From the IMG/VR virus record IMGVR_UViG_3300007735_000801: DNA of 64,000 nt; one strand, 5' to 3'. This DNA comes from a virus. Positions 4,388 to 18,078 of the stretch are shown here, in pieces (the stretch's first letter is position 1; each line of letters starts with the position of its first letter). The notes beneath the pieces were generated by a model. That model worked only from the letters and a program-made list of their open reading frames with translations, did not search any database and was not told the origin of the DNA. A program made the translations under genes and the position numbers.

Positions 4388-4758
4388 GTTGGCTCTTTGT
4401 AGTCTGTTATGATGTCTGATATGGTAAGTTGTCGTTTTATATCTTCCACGGCTTCACTCGGAGTCATGCCGTGTCCGACCATGCCTTCAATTTTGCCTAC
4501 AGAGTACGCTTCACGCTTACGCCTAGCAATGTAGGACACACTCTGTCGAACACGATAATAATCGCCAAGTCCTTGATCGGTACATTGCTCCACTTCCCAA
4601 CGGAGTCGATTCACCGCACTTTCTTCGGTTGTGCCGTGTCCGACTAGATCATCATGCTCTAAAGACTCGGCAAGGAATGTGGTAACCTTTACGATATCAA
4701 AACCGTAGGTGTCGCTGAACACATTGTCATCGGGGTATGGGTAAGATTTGTCGATCAC
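4384..4758 (-). CDS. protein with two HicB-N-like (G-x-G-x-T-x-x-[ES]-A) repeats
   Basis: LVGHGTTEESAVNRL and MVGHGMTPSEAVEDI; GTG start at 4758 with GGAGG RBS. Confidence 0.55.
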   Translation of the reverse strand: MIDKSYPYPDDNVFSDTYGFDIVKVTTFLAESLEHDDLVGHGTTEESAVNRLRWEVEQCTDQGLGDYYRVRQSVSYIARRKREAYSVGKIEGMVGHGMTPSEAVEDIKRQLTISDIITDYKEPT

Positions 4759-4922
4759 TTGAATGCCTCCGATAACTGAATGTACTTCCATTCTTCGCCG
4801 TCGAGTCTGTCGTGCCAACACACTTCCTCTACGGCTTGCTCTGTGGGGTAGGCAGAGTGGGGTTGCCATTCACCCCAAATACGACTCTCCTCATCCAATC
4901 TGCGAACTAATAATAAAAACAT
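4755..4922 (-). CDS. small acidic hypothetical protein (55 aa, not in the ORF track)
   Basis: MFLLLVRRLDEESRIWGEWQPH...LSEAFK; TAATG and GTGA overlaps with neighbours. Confidence 0.5.
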   Translation of the reverse strand: MFLLLVRRLDEESRIWGEWQPHSAYPTEQAVEEVCWHDRLDGEEWKYIQLSEAFK

Positions 4923-5221
4923 TATTTGCCACCTTTCTCTGTAAGTTGTCGATTAAGATCATGCAATGCACCTTCACGAGTATCTCCACGACCTACGCAG
5001 TCGTTCTCTCCGTCTTGGAATGCTGAGAATACGGTGACTGGCTTGACCCGAACTACGCAGTCCTGCCATACGATAGGGTCTGTGACATTGCGATTCCATT
5101 GCCTGACGGCTTCACGCAGGTTGGCTTCGGCTTCAAACGAAGTGCCGCCTGTGCCAACCAAGCCATCCTCTTGTCGTGCTTCAAAACCGATGTGTTGGGT
5201 GATGTGTTGTGTGATTTCCAT
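4922..5221 (-). CDS. protein with two HicB-N-like repeats
   Basis: LVGTGGTSFEAEANL and CVGRGDTREGALHDL. Confidence 0.55.
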   Translation of the reverse strand: MEITQHITQHIGFEARQEDGLVGTGGTSFEAEANLREAVRQWNRNVTDPIVWQDCVVRVKPVTVFSAFQDGENDCVGRGDTREGALHDLNRQLTEKGGK

Positions 5222-5269
5222 GATGTGTAAACGCTTTCTTGGTTAGGGTGTGACAGAATAAAAAGAAAA

Positions 5270-5719
5270 TTATCGGTTTTGCTCGTAAGAGTTGTGGTGA
5301 AGGTGAAGTTCGGTGCGCCAATCATAGGTGGCAGGATCATTACCGTCCCAATGACCATCATTAACAGTAACACCACAGCGACGATCCATGAGTCGTGCTT
5401 CCTGTTGGGCTTCACTCCCATCATAGGGATTAACACCATAAAAGTCTGCAAGGCGGCGTGTGGACTCCTCTTGATTCAGGATCATGGTGTCAGCCTCTAC
5501 CTCTGCCACCGCAGTCCACATGAGGCGGCAACAAGCCATGTCTAATTCGTCGGTAAACCAATAGAGTACATCACGAAACAGGCGATCTGTGCCAAAGCGG
5601 AATACCGCTTTACAGTATCCGTCACCATCATGTCCTGCTGAGTGCAGGGGACGAAGGCGAGCATTGCGACTGGCAAAGGTCTGGGCGAAGTCAGCGTACT
5701 GTGCGAGTGTTGGAGTCAT
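5270..5719 (-). CDS. hypothetical protein (first gene after a cassette promoter)
   Basis: RBS AAGGATAC, 5' hairpin and promoter directly upstream. Confidence 0.75.
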   Translation of the reverse strand: MTPTLAQYADFAQTFASRNARLRPLHSAGHDGDGYCKAVFRFGTDRLFRDVLYWFTDELDMACCRLMWTAVAEVEADTMILNQEESTRRLADFYGVNPYDGSEAQQEARLMDRRCGVTVNDGHWDGNDPATYDWRTELHLHHNSYEQNR

Positions 5720-5747
5720 TGGGTATCCTTGAGTGGGGTGCGATTTT

Positions 5748-5798
5748 GGCGAACATTCGCCGTTTTGAGCATCTTAACCTCGATTTTCACGGTGTCAA
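5748..5798 (-). promoter_or_regulatory. cassette promoter TTGACA-N16-TAAGAT plus 5' hairpin
   Basis: -35 at 5793-5798, -10 at 5771-5776, hairpin GGCGAA-TG-TTCGCC. Confidence 0.8.
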
Positions 5799-6102
5799 AT
5801 GGTAATTGAAGATTTTTAAAAGATTTTTATCGTGTCAGATAGGAAATAGTGGGGCGAAATGGGGCGAAGTGGGGCTGGGATAGGATATGTGGAGTTTTAG
5901 CGTAAAACAGGGGTAAGAGTCTGTGCCTCAACTCGCATCCCCCAACAGCCCTCTCAGAGGCTCTCAGATGCCCTAGGAACTGTCCGTAGCCTTTTTCCCG
6001 CCATCAGCACCCCCCAAGCGTGGACAACGCCCTGCGGCTTTAGATACGCTCTGCCACGATCTGAGGAATCTGAGGAATCTGTGAAATTATTTAATTTTTC
6101 TC

Positions 6103-6130
6103 TTGACTTCTCCGAAATCGGTGGTATACT
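6103..6130 (+). promoter_or_regulatory. plus-strand promoter TTGACT-N16-TATACT, convergent with the array
   Basis: Near-consensus hexamers, AAATCG in the spacer, AT-rich upstream tract; no ORF downstream. Confidence 0.7.
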
Positions 6131-6244
6131 TGGAGCAGACGCAGAGGTGCTACGGCTGTCCTCTGAGCGCACCGAGTTATGGGCGGCTGTGGCGTTGGGT
6201 GGCAACTATCAACAGGCGAGTCCGATAACTGGAATAATAATAAA

Positions 6245-6472
6245 ATAATAAAGCCTCATTCGGTGGCTCTAAGTCAGAGTCGAATGAGGCTCATGGCAGG
6301 GTGTGGCAGACACCTTGCCTGAACTGGGATTTATACCCCGCCTGACACTTTTCCCCCTGTTGAGGGTACTAGGCGAACAACGCAGGGTGAACAGGTGTTG
6401 CTGACACCCATGACAGAGCAGATAGGTGTTGTTTATAAGCACTCACCTACAAGGTTTTTGTATTCGTGTCAT
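6245..6472 (-). ncRNA. candidate structured non-coding RNA (about 225 nt)
   Basis: Lies between a consensus promoter (6479-6506) and a terminator (6252-6291); only a 9-codon ORF; several complementary stems. Confidence 0.6.
6252..6291 (-). terminator. intrinsic terminator
   Basis: AGCCTCATTCG...CGAATGAGGCT stem followed by a T-rich tail on the minus strand. Confidence 0.75.
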
Positions 6473-6478
6473 GCCCCT

Positions 6479-6506
6479 ATTATACAGCCGATTTCCACCG
6501 TGTCAA
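6479..6506 (-). promoter_or_regulatory. promoter TTGACA-N16-TATAAT
   Basis: Perfect consensus hexamers. Confidence 0.9.
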
Positions 6507-6682
6507 GTGGAAAATTAAATTATTATTGTGCAGTCCGATAACTTAGCCGTCCCATAACACCCCCTGCAACTATCAACTGGCGACGCAAAGTCCGATAACT
6601 TGCGGCGAAATAATAATAAATAAAAAACCCCCCTGCCGTTTTACGGGCAGAGGGGTCAGACCTTTCAAAGATCGTCAGGGGA

Positions 6683-7660
6683 TCAGGCGTTCACCGCCAT
6701 CCACGCTTCAGCCTGAGCGTAGGCTTTCTCCTTGATGGTCGAGCCGACCCCGAACAGGTTCGACTCCAAACGCAGGGAGTCATTGCTGTCCTCACCCTTC
6801 ACAGTACGCTCATGATCCACCCATTGGGTGATCGCATTCACAGCCGACCACAGGCTACCCGCAGACCGCATACCTGTCTGCTTTGTGTCAACCCAAAGGT
6901 TGGTACGCCACGCATCCAACACCTGCTCGTAGCGAGTATTGCCACGCCCTGATGCCTTTGGAGTTCCGTTCATGGAGTTATACACCTCCTGAAAGAACAC
7001 ATCCGCACTAGCCGTAGTCACTTCACGCTGTGCCAAACTGTTGCAGAACTTAGTGAAAGACTCAGCCTGTCCCATTCCTGCTTCAACCCATTCCTTGATC
7101 ATGCCAAACCGTGCTTTCGAGCCTGATCCGTGACGAATGGATGCCGAGTCAGCCTTGCCCTTCATACCCGCCAAAGCCATCATGAAAGTGTTCATGCAGA
7201 CAATGCGTTGAGCATTCAAGCCAAGTGTGGTAGCCCAACTCGTATCATGGCTAGTACCAATAAAAAAGTTATTATTAACCACATCACGAGGATCGCCGCC
7301 AATGTTCACCTGACCCAAGTCAACTTGGAAGAAGACTCGTTTGCCATTGTTGATTGAACCCACTTGGGTGCAACTAGTACCGCTGAAGTTAGTGATCTCA
7401 TAGCAGAGATCAGCCAACTCATGGTTCTGAATGGAAGTGTAGCCTTCCTTTGCAACAGCAAACACAAAGCCTGTGTCCTCACGCACAATCGCCCTGTAGT
7501 CACCGCCTGAGTACGCCGCACCGTCAGCACCGCAAGCCACGATAGGCAAGGTGGAAACCTTCCAATCCAAACCTGCCTTCCGCATCATGGAAATCGGGTC
7601 AGCCGTCAAGTTAGCCTTGTCAGCATCAGTAGCATTGTAAAGTTGAATCGTAGAAGCCAT
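6683..7660 (-). CDS. DUF932 family (phage/plasmid-like) protein
   Basis: AGLDWKV, AIVREDTG, YTSIQN, TSHD, RIVCMNT, IRH and GSLWSAVNAITQWVDH motifs. Confidence 0.85.
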   Translation of the reverse strand: MASTIQLYNATDADKANLTADPISMMRKAGLDWKVSTLPIVACGADGAAYSGGDYRAIVREDTGFVFAVAKEGYTSIQNHELADLCYEITNFSGTSCTQVGSINNGKRVFFQVDLGQVNIGGDPRDVVNNNFFIGTSHDTSWATTLGLNAQRIVCMNTFMMALAGMKGKADSASIRHGSGSKARFGMIKEWVEAGMGQAESFTKFCNSLAQREVTTASADVFFQEVYNSMNGTPKASGRGNTRYEQVLDAWRTNLWVDTKQTGMRSAGSLWSAVNAITQWVDHERTVKGEDSNDSLRLESNLFGVGSTIKEKAYAQAEAWMAVNA

Positions 7661-7691
7661 TCGAGTATCTCCTGAAAGAGTTAGTGAGAAT

Positions 7692-7749
7692 TGTCAGCAG
7701 GAACTTCCTGCCGACACGCCGATTGTACGCTCAATTTGCACGGTGTCAA
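7692..7749 (-). promoter_or_regulatory. cassette promoter TTGACA-N16-TACAAT plus 5' hairpin
   Basis: -35 at 7744-7749, -10 at 7722-7727, hairpin 7692-7716. Confidence 0.85.
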
Positions 7750-7941
7750 ATTGAATTTGCAATTTTTTAAAATATTTTTATATCCTTTATATCGGCGCAA
7801 GATAGAGTCCGATAACATAGCCGAGTCCGATAACCCCTGCGACTATCAACACGCCGCCCCCTGAGTCCGATAACTCAGGGACGGCAAAAACCCCCCTGCC
7901 CTGTTGGGGGCAGAGGGGGCTGTCACACCCGTGATTGGTGT

Positions 7942-8424
7942 TTACTTCTTCATGTACTCCGTGATGTAGCCGCTGATCGTTCCGTCACCGTTCACAATGC
8001 CCTTGCCATAGGCTTCGATCAGCCACGCCATCGCCTCAGCAATCTTGTTCAACTGCTTCACATTCAGCGTGTCCATGAACTCCTTCGCCGCCCACCCTGT
8101 CATTTCGTCACCGCTATGGCTGAACACAACCAACTTCATACCAATATGCGACGAATAGAACTCAGGGAAAATCTCCATCGAGATGTTCTCAGGAGAGCCT
8201 TCGAATGTCTTGCCGAACAACTCGTTGTCAGGATCACAGGCGAACTTAAACCCATCCTGATTAGCGTTGTCCTTCAAGAGTAACACTTCGCCAACCTCAT
8301 CGCCAATGAATCCGTCCAACCCTGCGTTGGCAGGGGCTTCAAGCATATTCACCACATGGTTGTACATTCGTGAAGCGATTGACTTCTTGTTTGCCATAGT
8401 ATTGATGTCTGTGAGTGAGAACAT
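7942..8424 (-). CDS. hypothetical cassette protein
   Basis: RBS AAAGG, own promoter, terminator near 7887-7919. Confidence 0.8.
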   Translation of the reverse strand: MFSLTDINTMANKKSIASRMYNHVVNMLEAPANAGLDGFIGDEVGEVLLLKDNANQDGFKFACDPDNELFGKTFEGSPENISMEIFPEFYSSHIGMKLVVFSHSGDEMTGWAAKEFMDTLNVKQLNKIAEAMAWLIEAYGKGIVNGDGTISGYITEYMKK

Positions 8425-8452
8425 GAGTAGCCTTTCTGAAAGAGTTGAGTGA

Positions 8453-8505
8453 GTGTCAGCACCTTGCCGACACCGTCATTATGGGGTCGATTTTCACCGT
8501 GTCAA
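8453..8505 (-). promoter_or_regulatory. cassette promoter TTGACA-N16-CATAAT plus 5' hairpin
   Basis: -35 at 8500-8505, -10 at 8478-8483. Confidence 0.8.
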
Positions 8506-8624
8506 GTAAAATATTAAATTATTTTTTTCTTTAAAGAAATCCGCAGAGTCCGATAACCACTGCGACTATCAACAACCGTCCCGCTCACCCAACAAGGGGA
8601 GCAGGAGCGGTTGCCCTCTTTAGA

Positions 8625-8894
8625 TTATTTGGCGAACAGTCTGCCGCTGATGCGTTGCCGCCTACGCTCAGCCGCCTCCTCAGGCGTACCCTTGCTGTCC
8701 TCGATCTGAATGCGAACATCACGCAACTGACGCTCCAAGTACTCCACCTGTTCACCCAACTCACGCCGAACCGATGCTCCGAAACTTCCCTCCTCAGCCA
8801 TAGCGTCATAGGGAACATTCGCAAGGTCATCCAAGCGAGTCAGACAATCCTTGAGTGTATTCTCAAGCCACCCCAACCTGACTAACAGATTCAC
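8625..8894 (-). CDS. hypothetical coiled-coil protein
   Basis: GTG start overlapping the upstream stop (GTGA). Confidence 0.65.
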   Translation of the reverse strand: MNLLVRLGWLENTLKDCLTRLDDLANVPYDAMAEEGSFGASVRRELGEQVEYLERQLRDVRIQIEDSKGTPEEAAERRRQRISGRLFAK

Positions 8895-9241
8895 GCCGCA
8901 CCCCCTTCGTTGACAAAGGCGGTATTCTTGCATTGGTAGCGAACACCACCACGGAAATACGGCATATCGAATGTGGATTCAAATGTGGGAGGTGAACACT
9001 TGTTCACCACCTCTTTGGTACGGCAATTACGCCACCCTGCCATGTATGCCCCCATGCGATTGAGCAGTTCACGCTTGCTGACATGACCATGCGTCAGCAC
9101 ATCCACTTCCGCAGACCCGACATAGTCCACTAACGACACCTTACCAAACGACCCAAACGATATGCCGTATGCTTCGCCTGTGTGCAGGTTGAGTGTGTCG
9201 CAGAACTGCTTCACTTGCATTTTTGTGATTCGAGTACCCAT
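8891..9241 (-). CDS. hypothetical phage protein
   Basis: RBS AGGAG; RITK..LN..GHVSKRELL pattern. Confidence 0.75.
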   Translation of the reverse strand: MGTRITKMQVKQFCDTLNLHTGEAYGISFGSFGKVSLVDYVGSAEVDVLTHGHVSKRELLNRMGAYMAGWRNCRTKEVVNKCSPPTFESTFDMPYFRGGVRYQCKNTAFVNEGGAA

Positions 9242-9273
9242 TGTTAGTTGCTCCTAAAGAGGTTCAGTATCCA

Positions 9274-9323
9274 CGGCAACCCTGCCGCTGTGTAGATTCT
9301 ACAGCCGATTTTCACCGTGTCAA
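9274..9323 (-). promoter_or_regulatory. cassette promoter TTGACA-N16-TAGAAT plus 5' hairpin
   Basis: -35 at 9318-9323, -10 at 9296-9301. Confidence 0.85.
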
Positions 9324-9496
9324 ATTAAATCTTAAATAATTATTTGACCAATAACTCCTAGAGTCCGATAACCCCTGCGACTATCAACACGACGAAAAAT
9401 ACCCTCCCCGAAGGGAGGGCGAGGCGAACCTCTTTGTTGTTTGAAGAAGTAGGGCGGGGTAGCCCCGTGGCTTGCCCCGCCGCACCCTCTTTGTAC

Positions 9497-9772
9497 TTAC
9501 ACCTTCGTAGCCTTACCTTGCGCCCATTGGGCGAGGCGAGCATACGAAGCCTTACGCAGGCGATTAGTTACCCACTTGTCGCTCTTTGGGTAGAAGCGAT
9601 TCGCATAGCCGCAGGCAGTCGCACCCTGCTCCAAGACAAAGCGGCAACCCTCATCATCGCTTGCACCGACCAACGCAAGGGCTTCGGCATTGTGCAGACG
9701 GCGTGGGTGTTGGGCAACCTCATGAGCAAACGCTACTCCCGCAGTTGACAAGTTAAGTGTTGAGTTTTCCAT
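9497..9772 (-). CDS. hypothetical cassette protein
   Basis: RBS AAAGGATAC, own promoter and terminator. Confidence 0.8.
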   Translation of the reverse strand: MENSTLNLSTAGVAFAHEVAQHPRRLHNAEALALVGASDDEGCRFVLEQGATACGYANRFYPKSDKWVTNRLRKASYARLAQWAQGKATKV

Positions 9773-9806
9773 AATCTAGTATCCTTTCATTAAGAGTTTA
9801 GTGAGT

Positions 9807-9857
9807 GTCAGCACCTTGCTGACTGCCGCATCATAAAGCCAATTTGCACCGTGTCAA
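9807..9857 (-). promoter_or_regulatory. cassette promoter TTGACA-N16-TATGAT plus 5' hairpin
   Basis: -35 at 9852-9857, -10 at 9830-9835. Confidence 0.85.
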
Positions 9858-9986
9858 ATGGAAAATTAAATTATTTTCGAGTCCGATAACTTACGAGTCC
9901 CATAACCCCTGCGACTATCAACACCGAAGCCTAGCCGCCCCGAAGGGCGGCAGGGACGAATCCTTTTCGGCGTTGGGGTTATCGGC

Positions 9987-10532
9987 TCATGCGTGTCCCC
10001 CCCTGATGGCGCACCAAATCACCGCTTGCGTTGCGGCGTTGCTCCATCCCATGCCAACCGCAACCGCAGTTACTGCCGACGCTAGGGCAAAGTATTTGCC
10101 CTTGCTTAGACTCTTGCTAGAGTCTAGCCCCGCCGCTTTCACCATCCAAGTGTCCACCACCACCGCCGCCATATCCCCCGCAATTGCACGGGCAAAGGCG
10201 TTGGTCTTTAATCCCTTCAACGCCGCAAATCCAAGGCGAGTACTCGCTTGCGCCATGCGCAAGTTATTCCGCAATCCCTTAGGCTTGCCACCCATTGCGA
10301 ATAACAAGGCTTGCGCCTTATTATTATTCCACTTATTGCGTGGACTGAATGAGGATACAACGGATGCCGCCACTTCCAATGTCCAAGGCGTAATTGTCGT
10401 AAGGTGAATAGCGAAGGCTTGCGCTTCGCAGTACCATGCCAAAGCATCCGCCAAGGCTTGTCCCTTGAGGGACTGCGCCAAGGTAGCGTACTTGGAAGTG
10501 GCGGATTCAAAGAGTTTAGTATTGAGTTTCAT
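9987..10532 (-). CDS. HhH-GPD glycosylase-like phage protein (DUF7178-like)
   Basis: SFSPRNKW..N, GLKTNAF, VVVDTWM and QAVIW motifs. Confidence 0.6.
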   Translation of the reverse strand: MKLNTKLFESATSKYATLAQSLKGQALADALAWYCEAQAFAIHLTTITPWTLEVAASVVSSFSPRNKWNNNKAQALLFAMGGKPKGLRNNLRMAQASTRLGFAALKGLKTNAFARAIAGDMAAVVVDTWMVKAAGLDSSKSLSKGKYFALASAVTAVAVGMGWSNAATQAVIWCAIRGGHA

Positions 10533-10566
10533 GATGGTATCCTATAAAGAGTTTAGAGTAAGATTA

Positions 10567-10617
10567 GGCAACGGCGTTGCCATGCGTCGATTGTAAGGTC
10601 GAATTTCACCGTGTCAA
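10567..10617 (-). promoter_or_regulatory. cassette promoter TTGACA-N16-TACAAT plus 5' hairpin
   Basis: -35 at 10612-10617, -10 at 10590-10595. Confidence 0.85.
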
Positions 10618-10785
10618 ATTAAATCTTAAATTATTTTTCTTTAAAGAAAAAAATTATTATCAGGACCTTGGCGACTATCAACATTTGGTGAAGTCCGATA
10701 ACCATGGCAACTATCAACAGGCGCAAAAAGATCAGCAGGGTAGCCCCGTGGCTTGCCCTACTGATCCCTCTTTGTTGCGTTGTCT

Positions 10786-11001
10786 TTACTTCACGCTTAC
10801 CACCACGCCTTGATCATCAACCTTTACCGTGGCGTACCAACTGTGTGGCGCAGGATACTGTGGACCTTCCACACAAACCGTTTCACCGTATACCGTGCTA
10901 CTTCCCATCGGACTTGGTTGCCACACTCCGACTTTCACGCCTTGCGCAATCGCTTCTTTGAATTGCTTCTTTGTCTTGTAGTTTGTCGTGCAGTAAGCCA
11001 T
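10786..11001 (-). CDS. conserved small phage protein
   Basis: MAYCTTNYKTKKQFKEA..VEGPQYPAPHSWYA; RBS AAGGATAC. Confidence 0.8.
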   Translation of the reverse strand: MAYCTTNYKTKKQFKEAIAQGVKVGVWQPSPMGSSTVYGETVCVEGPQYPAPHSWYATVKVDDQGVVVSVK

Positions 11002-11032
11002 TTGAGTATCCTTTATTAAAGAGTTGAGTGAT

Positions 11033-11082
11033 ATGGCAGAGTTGCCATGCGTCGATTGTACAGTCGATTTCCATCGTGTCAA
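11033..11082 (-). promoter_or_regulatory. cassette promoter TTGACA-N16-TACAAT plus 5' hairpin
   Basis: -35 at 11077-11082, -10 at 11055-11060. Confidence 0.85.
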
Positions 11083-11242
11083 ATTAAATCTTAAATAATT
11101 TATTGTCCAATAACTACTGTGACTATCAACATTCACAGAGTCCGATAACCCTGGCGACTATCAACAGGCGAAAAATTTTCAAAAATTCTTTAAAGAAAAA
11201 CCCACCCGCCAAACTTACGGCGGGGGGTTTCTTTTTTGCTCT

Positions 11243-11593
11243 TTAGTAGTGAGGGTCTCGATAAGTGTCTCGGAAGCCAACCGAAACGTATTGTCCACCC
11301 GTTGTCTTCCATCGACCATTGCTTCGCAGTTTTACTGTGATTGGACTTGCGCCTTCCACGGTCTCGTAGGTTTTTACCTTCTCGCTACCTTCGCCACCCG
11401 AAACGTCCCAAACGACCCGATCATGTGTCATCGTGAATTGCGTAATCTGTCCCTTGCGCTTGCCACTCTTGGCAAAAGTAACGCTTGTAACCGTGCAACC
11501 GTAGCGATCCGTCCACCACAATTCGGTGGCAGGACCACCGACAAAGGGAGCAGGCATTCCGTCGATCATGTTCGCATAAACGTAGTTGATCAT
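11243..11593 (-). CDS. conserved hypothetical phage protein
   Basis: PFVGGPAT..TDRY..RSNGRW..G.RDTYRDPHY pattern; RBS AAAGGA. Confidence 0.8.
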   Translation of the reverse strand: MINYVYANMIDGMPAPFVGGPATELWWTDRYGCTVTSVTFAKSGKRKGQITQFTMTHDRVVWDVSGGEGSEKVKTYETVEGASPITVKLRSNGRWKTTGGQYVSVGFRDTYRDPHY

Positions 11594-11622
11594 TTCAATC
11601 CTTTCAAAGAGGGGAAGTGAAA

Positions 11623-11672
11623 TCGGCAACGTGCCGACATCGTCAGTATGGAGCCAATTTTTACCGTGTCAA
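11623..11672 (-). promoter_or_regulatory. cassette promoter TTGACA-N16-CATACT plus 5' hairpin
   Basis: -35 at 11667-11672, -10 at 11645-11650. Confidence 0.8.
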
Positions 11673-11872
11673 ATTAAATCTTAAATTTATTTCAAATTAT
11701 TTTTCTTTAAAGAAAAAAAAAATTATCGGACCCTGGCGACTATCAACATTCACAGAGTCCGATAACACATGGCGACTATCAACATCCGCTCCCTGGGGAG
11801 GGGAGGGATGCTGGAGATCAGTCTGGGTATCATCCCCATCCACTCCCCCGAAGGGGAGGGATGGGGGAACTC

Positions 11873-12187
11873 TCAACCTCCCATGCAGGTTGGGAAGTAC
11901 CGTCGCATCACATCCATCGACTTCGAAGTTTCAGGATCAGTCGATTTCAGGAGGGCGGCGATTTCGAACTGTGGAACCTCAACTACAAATTCTTTGTGGC
12001 AGGTTCCTGCTTCTTGAGTGAGCCAAGCGTTGATGTGTTTGGTGGTTGTGCGTGAGTACCTTTCCTTGGCACGAACAAATCCAAAGTCCCGTACAAACGC
12101 CGCTACGGGAGTCGAGTACGATACGAACACAGTCGCATTTGTGAGGGTTAGAGTCATTTGGTTGTTTCCGAGAGATGTAATCTTCAT
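11873..12187 (-). CDS. conserved hypothetical phage protein
   Basis: SYSTPVAA..YSRTTTKHINAWL motif; RBS AAAGGATAC. Confidence 0.8.
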   Translation of the reverse strand: MKITSLGNNQMTLTLTNATVFVSYSTPVAAFVRDFGFVRAKERYSRTTTKHINAWLTQEAGTCHKEFVVEVPQFEIAALLKSTDPETSKSMDVMRRYFPTCMGG

Positions 12188-12221
12188 GGCTAGTATCCTT
12201 TCAAAGAGGGGAGAGTGAGCA

Positions 12222-12272
12222 TTGGCAACCCTGCCAACAAGAGCAGTATGGAGTCAATTTGCACGGTGTCAA
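12222..12272 (-). promoter_or_regulatory. cassette promoter TTGACA-N16-CATACT plus 5' hairpin
   Basis: -35 at 12267-12272, -10 at 12245-12250. Confidence 0.8.
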
Positions 12273-12486
12273 ATTAAATTCTCGATTTTCGTTCTTTAAA
12301 GAAAAAAATATTTTGTCCAATAACCTTGGCGACTATCAACATTTGGTGAAGTCCGATAACAGGTGGCGACTATCAACATGCGAAAAAAAAGACCGCCCCC
12401 TCGGAACTCCACGGAGGGGGGGACTTCTCTTTTGCTTGGTAGAAGTAAGGCGGAGCAGCCCCATGGCTTGCTCCGCCGCACCCTCT

Positions 12487-12729
12487 TTAGTCCTTTTCCT
12501 TGAATGTGTTATTTGCCATGAAAACTTGAAGTGATGGCAACGCCTCAATCAAGCGTATCCATTGACCCTTGTACAGGGTCACGGGAAACCGACCCAAGCC
12601 ATATACGCTCAAAGCACCCTTCTCGGACACCTTGAAGCCGATTGCCTTCACCTTGGATGCCGCCGCCTCCGCCGCCGCCGCTTTGAGTGCGGCATTCTCC
12701 GCCATTAACATTTCTAGTTGACTTGCCAT
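12487..12729 (-). CDS. conserved small protein (KVSEKGALSVYGLGRFPVTLYK family)
   Basis: Recognisable conserved-hypothetical motif after a coiled-coil N-terminus. Confidence 0.8.
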   Translation of the reverse strand: MASQLEMLMAENAALKAAAAEAAASKVKAIGFKVSEKGALSVYGLGRFPVTLYKGQWIRLIEALPSLQVFMANNTFKEKD

Positions 12730-12759
12730 TTCTGACCTTTCTGAAAGAGTTGAGTGTCA

Positions 12760-12810
12760 TCGGCAACCCTGCCGACAAGAGCAGTATGGAGTCAATTTCC
12801 ACCGTGTCAA
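12760..12810 (-). promoter_or_regulatory. cassette promoter TTGACA-N16-CATACT plus 5' hairpin
   Basis: -35 at 12805-12810, -10 at 12783-12788. Confidence 0.8.
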
Positions 12811-12948
12811 ATCAAATTCTCAATTTTCGTTCTTTAAAGAAAAAAAATATTATCAGGACGTTGGCGACTATCAACAATGCCAGAGTCTGATAACCTCTGG
12901 CGACTATCAACATCCGCTCCCCTGGGGAGGGGAGGGATGCTGGCGAGC

Positions 12949-13287
12949 TCACCGACCAATTTCACCTTCGCCCTTTCCCCAATCTTTGTGCGCCTCATAC
13001 GCTTCCAGCTGAGGATCAGAATCCTCACCCCATCGTGCATCCAAAGCTCGCTCAACCATTGCGCCGCAATATTCTTTAACCTGCTTGAGAGTCTTGAATT
13101 CTTTGGCGATTTCATCAGCTCCCCAACATTCCACGATGCTGTCGCCACCACGCTCATAGTTTCGTTCACACATATCGTAGACTGAATCAACAAATGCAAT
13201 TTGTTCATTTGTTGGGTTGGATTTGGCAATCCATCGGTTGAGTGTTGCGCCATTATCATCAGTAAAGTTTCTTGATTTCATGTCCAT
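12949..13287 (-). CDS. hypothetical acidic cassette protein
   Basis: RBS AAAGG; own promoter and downstream hairpin. Confidence 0.8.
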   Translation of the reverse strand: MDMKSRNFTDDNGATLNRWIAKSNPTNEQIAFVDSVYDMCERNYERGGDSIVECWGADEIAKEFKTLKQVKEYCGAMVERALDARWGEDSDPQLEAYEAHKDWGKGEGEIGR

Positions 13288-13338
13288 TTGTAGTGCCTTT
13301 CAAAGAGGGGTTTTTAAAGAGTAAACGAGTGAGCGTGT

Positions 13339-13367
13339 ATTATACCAAATTGTGTATTAAATGTCAA
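13339..13367 (-). promoter_or_regulatory. promoter TTGACA-N17-TATAAT (no 5' hairpin)
   Basis: Perfect consensus hexamers. Confidence 0.85.
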
Positions 13368-13464
13368 ATGAAATTCTTAATTTTCGTTCTTTAAAGAAAA
13401 AAAAAATATTATAGGACCCTGCGACTATCAACATCCGCTCCCCCGAAGGGGAGGGATGTGGCGA

Positions 13465-13647
13465 TCAGTCTCGATTCCATCCGAAGTACTCCCTCTCTTC
13501 CAGAGGGATTGGAGCAGCCACTTGGGGCTTGGGCTCTCCATACTTGGCGAGCCTTCGCTCTCGCCTCGTCAGAGGAACTTCCACTTCCGCCTTTGGTTGG
13601 GGGGGCTGTTCGCCCCCCCTTCCGCTTCTTCGTCCTCTAGGACTCAT
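13465..13647 (-). CDS. small hypothetical protein
   Basis: ATGA-coupled to the Csx16-like gene. Confidence 0.55.
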   Translation of the reverse strand: MSPRGRRSGRGGEQPPQPKAEVEVPLTRRERRLAKYGEPKPQVAAPIPLEEREYFGWNRD

Positions 13648-13979
13648 ACTTCACCCCCCGCCTTCATGACCACGTAGGTATTGAAACCTTGGAAGGCTTC
13701 CCTAACTTCTTCGATACCCAATTCTTTCCCACGTTGATCGGGGGTGAGTTGTAAAGTGGCTTCCGTTACGCTTGCGGCGAGTGCCGCAAGGTGGAGGGGA
13801 AGAACGCCCAACACATTCTTGCCCGTTACAAGGGCGGCGGTGGCATGGGCAACCACAGGCGTGGTGGCATCAAATGCGCCACGCTCAATCAAGAATTCGA
13901 CCAATCCTGTGTGGCGAGTTACAATCAGATCAATCAGTACGACGGGGGGATTTGTTGACGAGCAATCGACGATACGCAT
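13644..13979 (-). CDS. csx16: Csx16-like (Cas_VVA1548 family) putative cyclic-oligoadenylate ring nuclease
   Basis: IVTRHTGLVEFL, VAH, VLGVLPLHLAA and QRGKELGIEE follow the Csx16 motif order and spacing; RBS AAAGGA. Confidence 0.75.
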   Translation of the reverse strand: MRIVDCSSTNPPVVLIDLIVTRHTGLVEFLIERGAFDATTPVVAHATAALVTGKNVLGVLPLHLAALAASVTEATLQLTPDQRGKELGIEEVREAFQGFNTYVVMKAGGEV

Positions 13980-14008
13980 GAGTAGATCCTTTCAAAGAGG
14001 GGAAGTGA

Positions 14009-14059
14009 TATGGCGAAGTTGCCATGCGTGAAGTATACACTCGATTTCCACGCTGTCAA
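14009..14059 (-). promoter_or_regulatory. cassette promoter TTGACA-N16-TATACT plus 5' hairpin
   Basis: -35 at 14054-14059, -10 at 14032-14037. Confidence 0.85.
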
Positions 14060-14243
14060 ATGGGGGAGTCCTGTCCGAACAGTACACAGCGTTATGGGAC
14101 TCCCACGAGCCTCCTGGGGCTAGCACACATACCTGCAAGACTCCAAGGACGGCAGAGGACGGCAAACCACGCAGACCCCCCCCACCCCCATACCCCCCTA
14201 TTCGATTCCTGAGGATCCCCCCTCTCTAATTTTTTTTTTTTTT

Positions 14244-14251
14244 TATAAATA
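14244..14251 (+). promoter_or_regulatory. T4-type late promoter TATAAATA
   Basis: Exact consensus 4 nt before the GTG; equivalents at 14802, 15282, 15667 and 18762. Confidence 0.75.
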
Positions 14252-14255
14252 TATC

Positions 14256-14795
14256 GTGCTATCCTTTAAACAACATATAACGGAATCTTTACATATTCAC
14301 CCTTCTCCAGATGATCCTCATGATGTAGCAAAGTCCAATTTTACTTACGGAAAAGTTATCAAGAATGATATGATGGATACAGATAAATTAATTGGAGGAA
14401 TTAGTGATACCGATAAAAAAGAACAAGAACGAGTCTCAGATTTAGTTGCAAAAATGTCTAACCCTAAAACTGGTCATATCTCCAGACTAATTGTAGACAC
14501 TGGTGGAAATGTGCTGGAAGGACAACATCGTCTTTCTGCAGCAAGACAACTAGGACATAAAAAAGTTCCAGTTACGATTATAAAGGATTTAAGTTCTGGA
14601 TTTGATGTTTCTAAAATTGAAAAAGAAATTTCCGCAAAAGGGTATCACCCAGATCACGTACACCAAATAACACACCAAATACTAGACATGATTCACACAT
14701 CAGGTTCTCCTGGCAAAGCATTATCTTCCTATGAATTTCCTCAAGGTCACGAAGCGGCATTCATTGCAGGATTGAATGCGGCTATTCCTCAATAA
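14256..14795 (+). CDS. putative internal head protein with ParB/Srx-like domain
   Basis: N-terminal MLSFKQHITE (capsid-targeting-like); LIVDTGGNVLEGQHRLSAARQLGHKKVPV. Confidence 0.75.
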   Translation: MLSFKQHITESLHIHPSPDDPHDVAKSNFTYGKVIKNDMMDTDKLIGGISDTDKKEQERVSDLVAKMSNPKTGHISRLIVDTGGNVLEGQHRLSAARQLGHKKVPVTIIKDLSSGFDVSKIEKEISAKGYHPDHVHQITHQILDMIHTSGSPGKALSSYEFPQGHEAAFIAGLNAAIPQ

Positions 14796-15681: not shown

Positions 15682-18078
15682 ATGAAGCCTTTTATTGAAT
15701 ATCTGGTAGAAGATAATGATACCCTAGACTATGCTGTTCTATTAGAATCCATCTTGGATGAGCTTCCCCCAACACATCTAGGTGACCATCCTGAACTGGA
15801 AAAAATTACTTCTGAATTCGGTGTTACTAGATTTAAATACACCAATCCTGAACATAAAATCGTAACTCACATAGGATCCGAAGATGACACAGATTCTGGT
15901 ATTTATGATATAGACGTAGGTGTCAATAGAAATTATGATAATACAGGATCCACAACACCAGTTGATAATAGCCACATAATAAGAATTGCTCGTGACCACC
16001 TACACGACTTCATTACTAAAGTGAAACCAAAAGTAATGCGTTATTCTACACCTGATCCAAAAAGGCATATGCTTTATCAACTTATTGCCAGACAATATCC
16101 AGAAGTTCAATTCGTAAACACAGAACCCCGTCTTAATGACGATAAAAAAACAAGTCGGATAAAGGGTATATTATTTAAAGGTTCTGGAGATGATGCAATA
16201 TCAACATTAAATAACACATCAAAAACACAAGATTTTAATCCAACTCATACTGCAGCACAACATTCTGATCCAGCAGTTGCTCTAGCAGCTTTGGCTCATA
16301 AAGACGCAGACAAAAGAACTACTCATGGTGCATCAGAACATAAAGATCCAGCAGTTGCTCTAGCAGCTTTGGCTCATAAATATTCAAACGAATATACAAC
16401 TCATGGTGCAGCAAGTCACAAAGATCCAGCAGTTGTTATGGCGGCTTTGGCTCATAAAGACGCAGATTTTAGAACAACTTACTACGCAGCACAACATCCA
16501 GATCCAGCAGTTGCTCTGGCAGGTTTGGCTCATAAAGCGGCAGATAACGGAACAACTCAATCTGCAGCACGTCATTCTAATCCAGCAGTTGCTCTAGCAG
16601 CTTTGGCTCATAAAGACGCAAATAAATATACAACTGAATATGCAGCAAGTCACAGAGATCCAGCAGTTGCTCTAGCAGCTTTGGCTCATAAAGACGCAAA
16701 TAAAATGACAACTCAAGCTGCAGCACAACATTCTGATCCAGCAGTTGCTCTAGCAGCTTTGGCTCATAAATATTCAAACGAATATACAACTCATGGTGCA
16801 GCAAAACACAAAGATCCAGCAGTTGTTATGGCGGCTTTGGCTCATAAAGACGCAGATTTTACAACAACTTGTTACGCAGCAAATCATCCAGATTATGAAG
16901 TTGCTATGGGAGCAATAAACCACAAACATGCAAATTCTTCAACAATCAGGGTTGCGGCAAGTAATCCTAACCCAGCAGTGGCTGCTGCTGCTATAAATCA
17001 TCGTTATGCTCAATATGATGCACTTGATTTTGCATCAAGGCATCCAAATCGTGCAGTATCACTAGCAGCAGAGCAAAAACTTAACGATTTACATTCAAAA
17101 AGTTTGTCAGAATCGTATTCCGCTGGAAAAATTAAGCCTTTTCTTAAATATTTAACCGAAGAGGACCTTACTCTGGAGTATCACGACACTCTGAACCCTA
17201 AAATTTGGGACGGAGACGAGTTAAAACCAGAAGTTCAGGCTAAATTGCTGCAGATTGCCAAGAAATGGGCAACATTTGCAAAGATTCCAGACTTCGCCAT
17301 CACAGACATCATCCTGGTTGGCGGAAATGCCAATTACAACTGGACAAAATTCTCGGATCTTGACCTACATGTCGTCGTAAATCGTGAAGATCTGGCTGAT
17401 TGCCCTGATTTGCTAGACGATTATCTGCAAAATAAAAAACAATTATGGGCTTTGGTGCACGACATCACGATTTACGGTCACGATGTGGAGCTTTACGCTC
17501 AAGACAAGGAGACTCCTTACCCAAAAAAGCAAGGAGTCTACAGCGTTAAGGATAAAAAGTGGATTGCACAGCCAAAACACGAAGCGGTTGACTTTCGTGG
17601 ACCAGCTTTACTCGCAAAAGTGAAGCAATATACGGAAAGAATTGACACCCTGATCTCTACGAATGCGGAAGATGAGAGTTTTTCCAAATTAAAAGAAAAA
17701 TTCAAGAATATGCGCTCCTCAGGCTTAAAAAAAATCGGGGAATTCTCTATGGAAAACTTATTATTCAAAGAATTACGAAATCGTGGAGTAATTGACAGGA
17801 TGACTAAGTATTTACAGTCACGACTAGACCAAAAATTGAGTCTGAATGAGGATTATGATTTTCAAATTCAGATTCACAACAAAAAAACCAACGAATTGGT
17901 TGGAGTGAAGCAACTTAGTAGCCAAACAAAAACCGACGCAATGGGTACAGGTCTTCGAGGTTTGCAATTAGCTAAACATAATTTTAAATCAGAATATCCT
18001 GCGGCAGGTGATGTGGCAGATCATCACTTTTCTATAAGATATCCACACGATAGCAGTTGGATCACTCCAACCAGTTAA
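15682..18078 (+). CDS. putative internal head polyprotein: helical repeats plus Pol-beta-type nucleotidyltransferase
   Basis: MKPFIEYLVE; 26-aa repeats; LVGGNANYNWTKFSDLDLHVV nucleotidyltransferase motif. Confidence 0.8.
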   Translation: MKPFIEYLVEDNDTLDYAVLLESILDELPPTHLGDHPELEKITSEFGVTRFKYTNPEHKIVTHIGSEDDTDSGIYDIDVGVNRNYDNTGSTTPVDNSHIIRIARDHLHDFITKVKPKVMRYSTPDPKRHMLYQLIARQYPEVQFVNTEPRLNDDKKTSRIKGILFKGSGDDAISTLNNTSKTQDFNPTHTAAQHSDPAVALAALAHKDADKRTTHGASEHKDPAVALAALAHKYSNEYTTHGAASHKDPAVVMAALAHKDADFRTTYYAAQHPDPAVALAGLAHKAADNGTTQSAARHSNPAVALAALAHKDANKYTTEYAASHRDPAVALAALAHKDANKMTTQAAAQHSDPAVALAALAHKYSNEYTTHGAAKHKDPAVVMAALAHKDADFTTTCYAANHPDYEVAMGAINHKHANSSTIRVAASNPNPAVAAAAINHRYAQYDALDFASRHPNRAVSLAAEQKLNDLHSKSLSESYSAGKIKPFLKYLTEEDLTLEYHDTLNPKIWDGDELKPEVQAKLLQIAKKWATFAKIPDFAITDIILVGGNANYNWTKFSDLDLHVVVNREDLADCPDLLDDYLQNKKQLWALVHDITIYGHDVELYAQDKETPYPKKQGVYSVKDKKWIAQPKHEAVDFRGPALLAKVKQYTERIDTLISTNAEDESFSKLKEKFKNMRSSGLKKIGEFSMENLLFKELRNRGVIDRMTKYLQSRLDQKLSLNEDYDFQIQIHNKKTNELVGVKQLSSQTKTDAMGTGLRGLQLAKHNFKSEYPAAGDVADHHFSIRYPHDSSWITPTS
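16252..17070 (+). repeat. 78-bp (26-aa) tandem coding repeat, about 10.5 units
   Basis: AAxHxDPAVALAALAHKxAxxxTTxx repeated. Confidence 0.95.

Follow-up and report, generated by a model that had tools for sequence, protein, structure and literature searches.

A stand-alone Csx16-family gene in the cassette array of a T4-like phage, a candidate cA4 ring nuclease directed against type III CRISPR signalling

The stretch of viral DNA considered here, 64,000 nucleotides of the IMG/VR record IMGVR_UViG_3300007735_000801 (in the following, the window), contains on its minus strand, at 13644..13979, a gene of the Csx16 (Cas_VVA1548) family. Its product, P0001, is a candidate ring nuclease for cyclic tetra-adenylate (cA4), on the grounds of a Pfam match, of conserved residues, of an AlphaFold2 model and of the ratio between nonsynonymous and synonymous substitutions (dN/dS). 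The open reading frame (ORF) starts with an ATG at 13979-13977 and ends with a TGA at 13646-13644, coding for a protein of 111 aa; an earlier reading of the bare sequence, hereafter the original prediction, had given exactly these limits, and the four motifs that it had named are all found in the order it described, namely VTRHTGLVEFL at residues 20-30, VAH at 43-45, VLGVLPLHLAA at 55-65 and RGKELGIEE at 83-91.

The gene is provided with its own expression signals. A sigma-70-type (early-type) promoter, TTGACA-16 nt-TATACT, lies on the same strand at 14032..14059 and agrees with the consensus at 11 of 12 positions, so that the strong promoter previously claimed for the outer end of the array is indeed present; it is a member of the repeated promoter family D1/D6 of the array and is 100% conserved (14059..14032) in two relatives, L065 and L066, described below. 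The promoter is followed by a 5' leader (13980..14031, minus strand), read from the sequence, which includes an inverted repeat, ATGGC-N6-GCCAT, at 14010-14025, near the predicted transcript start, and a ribosome-binding site, AAAGGA, at 13987-13992, 7 nt before the ATG. The same leader is found in other cassettes (repeat families D6 and D15), and the fold of the csx16 leader alone is not unusually stable (z -1.2). Since the promoter is of the sigma-70 type, the gene is probably expressed early.

The genome is that of a T4-like myovirus, with gp32 (PF08804, 157 bits), T4_baseplate (PF12322, 131 bits), baseplate wedge subunits (phrog_219, 233 bits) and four tRNA genes. In it csx16 is the outermost, first cassette of a minus-strand array that extends from approximately 5.3 to 14.06 kb. 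No CRISPR-like repeat array is found in the 64-kb window and no Cas family among the ORFs scanned, a subset that comprises the larger ones, in agreement with the original prediction, which had described the gene as standing alone.

The Pfam profile PF09652 (Cas_VVA1548), whose use as a check had already been proposed, aligns over positions 2-90 of its 91 with residues 19-104 of P0001, giving 62.2 bits and an E of 5.5e-17 with a gathering cut-off of 25 bits; this is a match far beyond chance, and P0001 can be regarded as a true member of the Csx16 family, a grade much surer than that of the whole anti-CRISPR chain discussed below. A Pfam scan of P0001 at E <= 1 returned PF09652 only, and no DUF1874; no family of the PHROGs collection matched the protein. 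Searching with the single sequence retrieves 19 relatives, eight at 75-94% identity and the rest at 42-56%, and a profile search finds 1,263 family members in a collection clustered at 90% and, among representatives at 50% identity, 2,590 clusters at E <= 0.001 and 1,696 at E <= 1e-10. Tandem double Csx16 domains, on proteins of about 200-320 aa, occur in Deinococcota genomes (L056, L057, L060) and elsewhere (P0124-P0133 and others); these may represent single-chain pseudo-dimers, because ring nucleases work as dimers.

In the alignment of P0001 with gp03 of Methanobacterium virus Drs3 and with the Csx16 protein of L052, a locus linked to Cas10, the invariant residues are T21, R22, H23, H45, G58, L60, P61, L64, R83, G84, E86 and L87; among these T21, R22, H23, H45, R83, G84 and E86 are invariant also across the plasmid and viral copies. 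When 117 sequences are aligned, R22, H23, G58, L60, P61, L64, A65 and G84 are invariant, and T21, H45, T72, R83, E86 and L87 are conserved in at least 90%. It was the presence of His, Arg and Asp/Glu residues that marked Csx16 as a likely ring nuclease, and a partial similarity of Csx16 to DUF1874 has also been described (PMC8284326). The conserved polar residues of the family (His, Arg, Asp/Glu), which are thought to bind and cleave cyclic oligoadenylate, are kept in P0001. The protein might act mainly as a sponge, binding cyclic oligoadenylate with little or no cleavage, as does Csx15, a related predicted ring nuclease that is a good cA4 binder and a very slow nuclease (PMC13148439); indeed, binding and catalysis are inseparable from sequence alone. 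However, the polar residues of active Csx16 relatives (T-R-H, H45 and R-G-x-E) are all retained in P0001, Csx15 has not been seen in phage genomes, and sponging has been argued to be poor against high signal levels (PMC13148439); a sponge is thus considered unlikely.

A caveat on the family assignment comes from NCBIfam TIGR02620, the equivalog model for cellular Csx16, on which P0001 obtains 17 bits, under the cut-off of 46.35. Seven of the eight other relatives tested, of viral, plasmid or unknown context, score 20-32 bits, and the remaining one, L024, gives no match; Drs3 gp03 reaches 45.3 bits and the Cas10-linked L052 protein 107.7 bits. Csx16 degrades cA4 specifically and has been found in 68 type III loci and in 2 of 28,114 phage genomes (Hoikkala et al. 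2025, PMC12409355). The separation of the viral branch from cellular Csx16 (17-32 versus 107.7 bits) could be taken to mean that P0001 degrades another signal, such as cA3 or cA6 (the cyclic tri- and hexa-adenylates) or another cyclic nucleotide, its target being the cyclic oligonucleotide-based antiphage signalling system (CBASS) or a type III system that does not use cA4; phage Crn4b, in fact, degrades both cA3 and cA4 (PMC12830947). Conversely, the Csx16 that was tested is cA4-specific even at tenfold higher enzyme (PMC12409355), the conserved residues of P0001 are identical and its sequence holds no pointer to another ligand, so that a change of substrate seems quite improbable.

The AlphaFold2 model of P0001, built from the 117-sequence alignment, has a pLDDT of 87.2 and a pTM of 0.77, with alternating strands and helices. 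It may represent a small alpha/beta fold (derived Rossmann, CARF-like) related to DUF1874; its top fold neighbours are AcrIII-1 and Crn2, and nothing is found at E <= 0.001 in Foldseek searches of PDB and BFVD. Sequence searches of PDB with P0001 returned no DUF1874 chain; they drew designed ankyrin repeat proteins (DARPins) and ankyrin repeats, with an E of 3.5e-4 for the single sequence and of 3e-9 for the profile. An ankyrin reading was rejected as convergence, because a single 9-residue motif, G-x-(L/T)-P-L-H-L-A-A, accounts for the signal when its matches to successive repeats are added up: each single ankyrin-like stretch gives a match that is insignificant on its own, and at the motif the model shows a strand-loop-short helix-strand arrangement, without the helix hairpin expected of ankyrin. 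The motif G-V-L-P-L-H-L-A-A of this branch (P0001 residues 55-66) mimics the ankyrin consensus and is a trap for automated annotation.

Relatives of P0001 are widespread among viruses. A motif scan of IMG/VR revealed 50 viral contigs with relatives of 34-68% identity, none of which (0/50) contains a Cas10 of the Cmr2 or Csm1 type; completeness reaches 90% or more in 11 of them, and terminal repeats are present in four. Their csx16 surroundings are unrelated to the window phage and to each other: no conserved partner gene stands beside the viral homologues, the largest cluster among 660 neighbour ORFs covering 4 loci; Pfam assigns scattered phage genes and no cas genes to the 140 nearest neighbours, the others being ORFans; and the longer open frames of the viral loci contain no informative domain as fusion partner. 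The same motif, looked for in one genome per species of 185,579 prokaryotic species, occurs at only two loci, and the nearest ESM Atlas clusters, of 374, 293 and 56 members, are respectively 95%, 88% and 100% viral among the members with a taxon. In tblastn searches of 50,697 deposited phage records, P0001, the L005 copy and P0095 matched nothing, and with P0040 only Methanobacterium virus Drs3 was found. Drs3 gp03 (YP_010355846.1), annotated as 'putative CRISPR-associated protein (Cas_VVA1548)' and located about 1.5 kb from the genome end, is also a stand-alone gene of the family; it differs from P0001 in that it belongs to an archaeal virus, is 35% identical, lies on a very long branch and is nearer to the cellular model.

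The family is also found in PLSDB on two Deinococcota plasmids, A. silvanus pMESIL02 (L053) and D. proteolyticus pDEIPR02 (L054), and no cas gene lies closer than 12 kb to either copy. One copy, of 94 aa, is encoded among small genes that include three single-stranded DNA-binding protein (SSB) genes, and the other is a 671-aa fusion. Both copies are surrounded by small hypothetical genes that all run in one direction and are accompanied by SSB, ParB, Rad52, RNase H and RES genes, and the fusion directly follows a genuine ankyrin-repeat gene. Among 301 Deinococcota genomes the family is present in 6; in all three that also have a Cas10 match (3/3), Cas10 is on other contigs.

The only relative that could be linked to a type III locus is that of L052, a 98-aa ORF in a metagenome-assembled genome of Rhodocyclaceae, which lies about 7 kb downstream of cas10/cmr2 (211 bits), the gene after it containing a Card1 endonuclease domain; P0001 shares 32% identity with it. 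Differently from cellular Csx16, P0001 is phage-borne, is not beside cas genes, has its own early-type promoter and displays the branch-specific G-V-L-P-L-H-L-A-A. In a family tree of 173 members, whose 98 columns are too few to resolve the deep branching or the donor, support is good for the nine-member clade of the window; viral sequences occur all over the tree, and the L052 protein, linked to Cas10, occupies a long separate branch. The original prediction had seen in the gene a captured host off-switch; this claim is not borne out, as P0001 scores below the TIGR02620 cut-off, its branch is mainly virus- and plasmid-borne and L052 lies far apart on its own branch, and no evidence of a recent capture from a host is seen. 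From the same comparisons, P0001 is placed in a large branch carried mainly by viruses and plasmids, which the curated cellular models miss.

Searches for IMG/VR relatives of the window phage through the flanking late gene at 14256-14795, and a 10-kb megablast, retrieved none. Two short metagenome contigs, L065 and L066, contain the gene for a Csx16 protein 79% identical to P0001. In a comparison covering 13400-14190, their nucleotide identity with the window is 69.9% over the csx16 core and 90-94% over the non-coding flanks, the promoter, the leader and the 180 nt after the stop being at 93-94%; the flanks thus look like conserved units for recombination or regulation that frame a diverged allele. 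Recombination at cassette junctions would yield just such a pattern, with nearly unchanged sequence on either side of an allele that diverged long ago. L066 retains the neighbouring cassette (homologue of 12949-13287), which is missing from L065, where csx16 is joined directly to the homologue of 12487-12729; hence cassettes are lost and gained beside csx16. Both contigs (L065 at approximately 330-455) have, between the conserved promoter and csx16, an extra hydrophobic ORF of 41 aa, starting MDFLYCTLICVV, which is absent from the window.

Comparison of the P0001 gene with its 79% relative by the Nei-Gojobori method gives a dN of 0.18 and a dS of 1.9, which is saturated; dN/dS is therefore about 0.1, and strong purifying selection acts on P0001. 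The gene lies in a compositionally foreign, fast-changing region, with a G+C content at third codon positions (GC3) of 0.54 versus 0.17-0.32 in the core genes, and for this reason it could be suspected to be a decaying passenger or a spurious ORF. Such a view is contradicted by a dN/dS of this order with saturated synonymous sites, as well as by nine intact close homologues, by the gene's own promoter and ribosome-binding site and by the full-length Pfam match, and is hardly credible.

Immediately after csx16 lies a small open frame, ORF2 (13465..13647, minus strand), which would code for an Arg/Pro-rich protein of 60 aa and whose ATG overlaps the csx16 stop codon (ATGA); it could be assigned to no family. 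The predicted protein is 90-95% conserved in P0259, P0260 and L065, where the stop codon is unchanged and an indel preserves the frame; at the nucleotide level the stretch is 93.8% identical to L065/L066, so that ORF2 is more conserved than Csx16. The same stretch forms strongly structured GC-rich RNA hairpins (fold z-score -4.4), and ORF2 may be a translationally coupled partner protein, a structured 3' element, or both.

A conserved and coupled ORF2 hints at a two-part module, and this is one of the points in favour of a role for the virus/plasmid branch outside CRISPR, such as the binding of a host protein or of another nucleotide, its resemblance to Csx16 being ancestral only. Other points are that the roughly 2,590 clusters, most of them away from cas loci, might reflect a broader function, and that for SIRV2 gp37, of the AcrIII-1 family, an advantage through inhibition of a host lysine methyltransferase has been reported. 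However, conservation in P0001 is concentrated on the residues that are conserved in the Cas10-linked enzyme, and the Deinococcota genomes with plasmid copies have a type III Cas10 elsewhere, as expected for a mobile counter-defence gene; a non-CRISPR role therefore retains a small chance, and the anti-type III interpretation is preferred.

To our knowledge, few anti-CRISPRs against type III systems exist, and ring nucleases are the sole class that acts on the signal and not on Cas proteins. Modified DNA is frequent in T4-like phages and blunts the DNA-targeting CRISPR types, so that type III, which senses RNA, would be the CRISPR type that these phages most need to counter. AcrIII-1/Crn2 (DUF1874), reportedly described by Athukoralage et al. 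in 2020, is a viral cA4 ring nuclease with anti-CRISPR function, with structures in PDB entries 6SCF, 2J6B/2J6C and 8Y7G. P0001 is phage-encoded and stand-alone; it has neither detectable sequence similarity to AcrIII-1 nor a Pfam match to DUF1874, and while AcrIII-1 is the ring nuclease most often met in deposited phage genomes (36 of 28,114; PMC12409355), the P0001 branch comes from uncultured viral contigs and plasmids. Viral ring nucleases are established as anti-CRISPRs for AcrIII-1 and have been proposed as such for Crn4b (PMC12830947). A preprint calls for caution, since SIRV2 gp37 does not act as an anti-CRISPR in native infection because of its expression in the middle/late phase; for P0001, conversely, the type of promoter argues for early expression.

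Taken together, an anti-type III ring nuclease is the best available interpretation of P0001, because the family residues are kept, the fold neighbours of the model are ring nucleases, the gene is phage-borne without cas genes and its promoter is of the early type. According to this interpretation, host RNA polymerase would most likely transcribe csx16 straight after infection from its own sigma-70-type promoter; P0001 would form a homodimer, by analogy with cellular Csx16 and AcrIII-1/Crn2, and the dimer would bind the cA4 made by Cas10 and cut it to linear products. This would keep effectors with a CARF (CRISPR-associated Rossmann fold) domain, for example Csx1/Csm6, Can1/Can2 and Card1, from ever being switched on, and type III immunity would be blunted. 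The probability of the whole chain, in which P0001 degrades cA4 and thereby weakens type III CRISPR signalling, is put at about 60%; that P0001 dimerises, that it binds and cleaves cA4, that it is made early and that it serves as an anti-CRISPR are all presumptive. Thus, the part of the original prediction that concerned a ring nuclease and anti-CRISPR stands as the best available reading for a stand-alone phage Csx16, and the claims of host capture and of an anti-defence array are left without support.

The array has a regular architecture, in which small unrelated ORFs are separated by junctions made of a GC-rich hairpin, conserved boxes, an AT tract, a TTGACA promoter and a leader hairpin. 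Within 5.7-14.06 kb the promoter block recurs in eleven copies, along with several families of junction repeats, and a separate scan confirmed the promoters. The junction at the 3' end of the csx16 cassette (13391..13464, minus strand; families D8-D10) contains a GC-rich hairpin (about 13432-13461), a GCGACTATCAACA box and a T run, and the promoter of the next cassette (13367..13339, minus strand) comes after it. Because of the hairpin and the T run on the transcribed strand, this junction probably acts as a terminator; a consensus terminator scan of 13200-14300 called none. The region 4400-14060 has a GC content of about 50% and a GC3 of 0.41-0.68, versus 0.17-0.32 in late and core genes, a composition suggesting that the array is foreign or has evolved separately.

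In its architecture the array fits the promoter-early stem-loop (PeSL) cassettes, which mediate modular shuffling within hyperplastic regions of T4-like genomes (Arbiol et al. 2010, PMC2839356; Comeau et al. 2014, PMC4122927). As in PeSL cassettes, a composite of terminator, early promoter and stem-loop is repeated between small unrelated ORFs in a T4-like genome, and whole cassettes are gained or lost at the junction motifs between close relatives, as in L065 and L066. Differently from them, the junctions of the window have extra conserved boxes, GCGACTATCAACA and AGTCCGATAAC, and the GC3 of the array is much above that of the rest of the phage. The array had been read as a set of anti-defence genes; this is unsupported, because the other cassettes scanned, which are DUF932 (6683-7660, minus strand, 110 bits), DUF7178 (9987-10532, minus strand, 81 bits), unnamed PHROGs and ORFans, have no known anti-defence function, and known PeSL cassettes explain the architecture.

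Homologues of some cassettes of the array recur near csx16 elsewhere. On the viral contig L001 a DUF932 homologue lies 8 kb from the csx16 homologue, and L037, L029 and L025 have homologues of the cassettes 11873-12187 and 12487-12729 near csx16. Rfam gave on the array only a sub-threshold match to the small RNA (sRNA) sX13, in the inter-cassette stretch 11775-11877 (minus strand; 26.5 bits versus 50, E 0.083), probably due to chance. Outside the array, the plus-strand ORF 15682-18078, of 798 aa, contains about eight in-frame repeats of 78 nt (26 aa) at 16230-16869 and has a weak match to a nucleotidyltransferase (18.7 bits, below the cut-off).

As the cA4 activity of Csx16 and its presence in phages were published in 2025 (PMC12409355), P0001 adds to a known kind; what is added here is the mainly viral and plasmid branch, the PeSL-type cassette in a T4-like phage and the overlapping, conserved ORF2. 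It is possible, if rather doubtful, that the branch constitutes a distinct, virus-centred anti-type III family, perhaps the source of cellular Csx16, by likeness to what has been proposed for AcrIII-1 and Crn2, and perhaps working in this lineage together with ORF2; the G-V-L-P-L-H-L-A-A motif and the sub-threshold TIGR02620 scores may be its markers, and its clusters, found mostly in uncultured viruses and on plasmids, may number in the thousands. In that case, the two phage genomes reported in the literature would greatly understate how common the family is in bacterial viruses. The practical gain would be modest, namely a small candidate protein for switching off cA4-based type III tools and diagnostics. 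If P0001 is active, the curated cellular Csx16 models would miss, or mislabel as 'CRISPR-associated', a gene that belongs mainly to mobile elements, and Csx16-type enzymes, given their occurrence on 50 viral contigs, on plasmids and in approximately 2,590 clusters, would be a common means of viral counter-defence in bacteria; a phage csx16 may then serve as a marker for those phages whose hosts use type III signalling.
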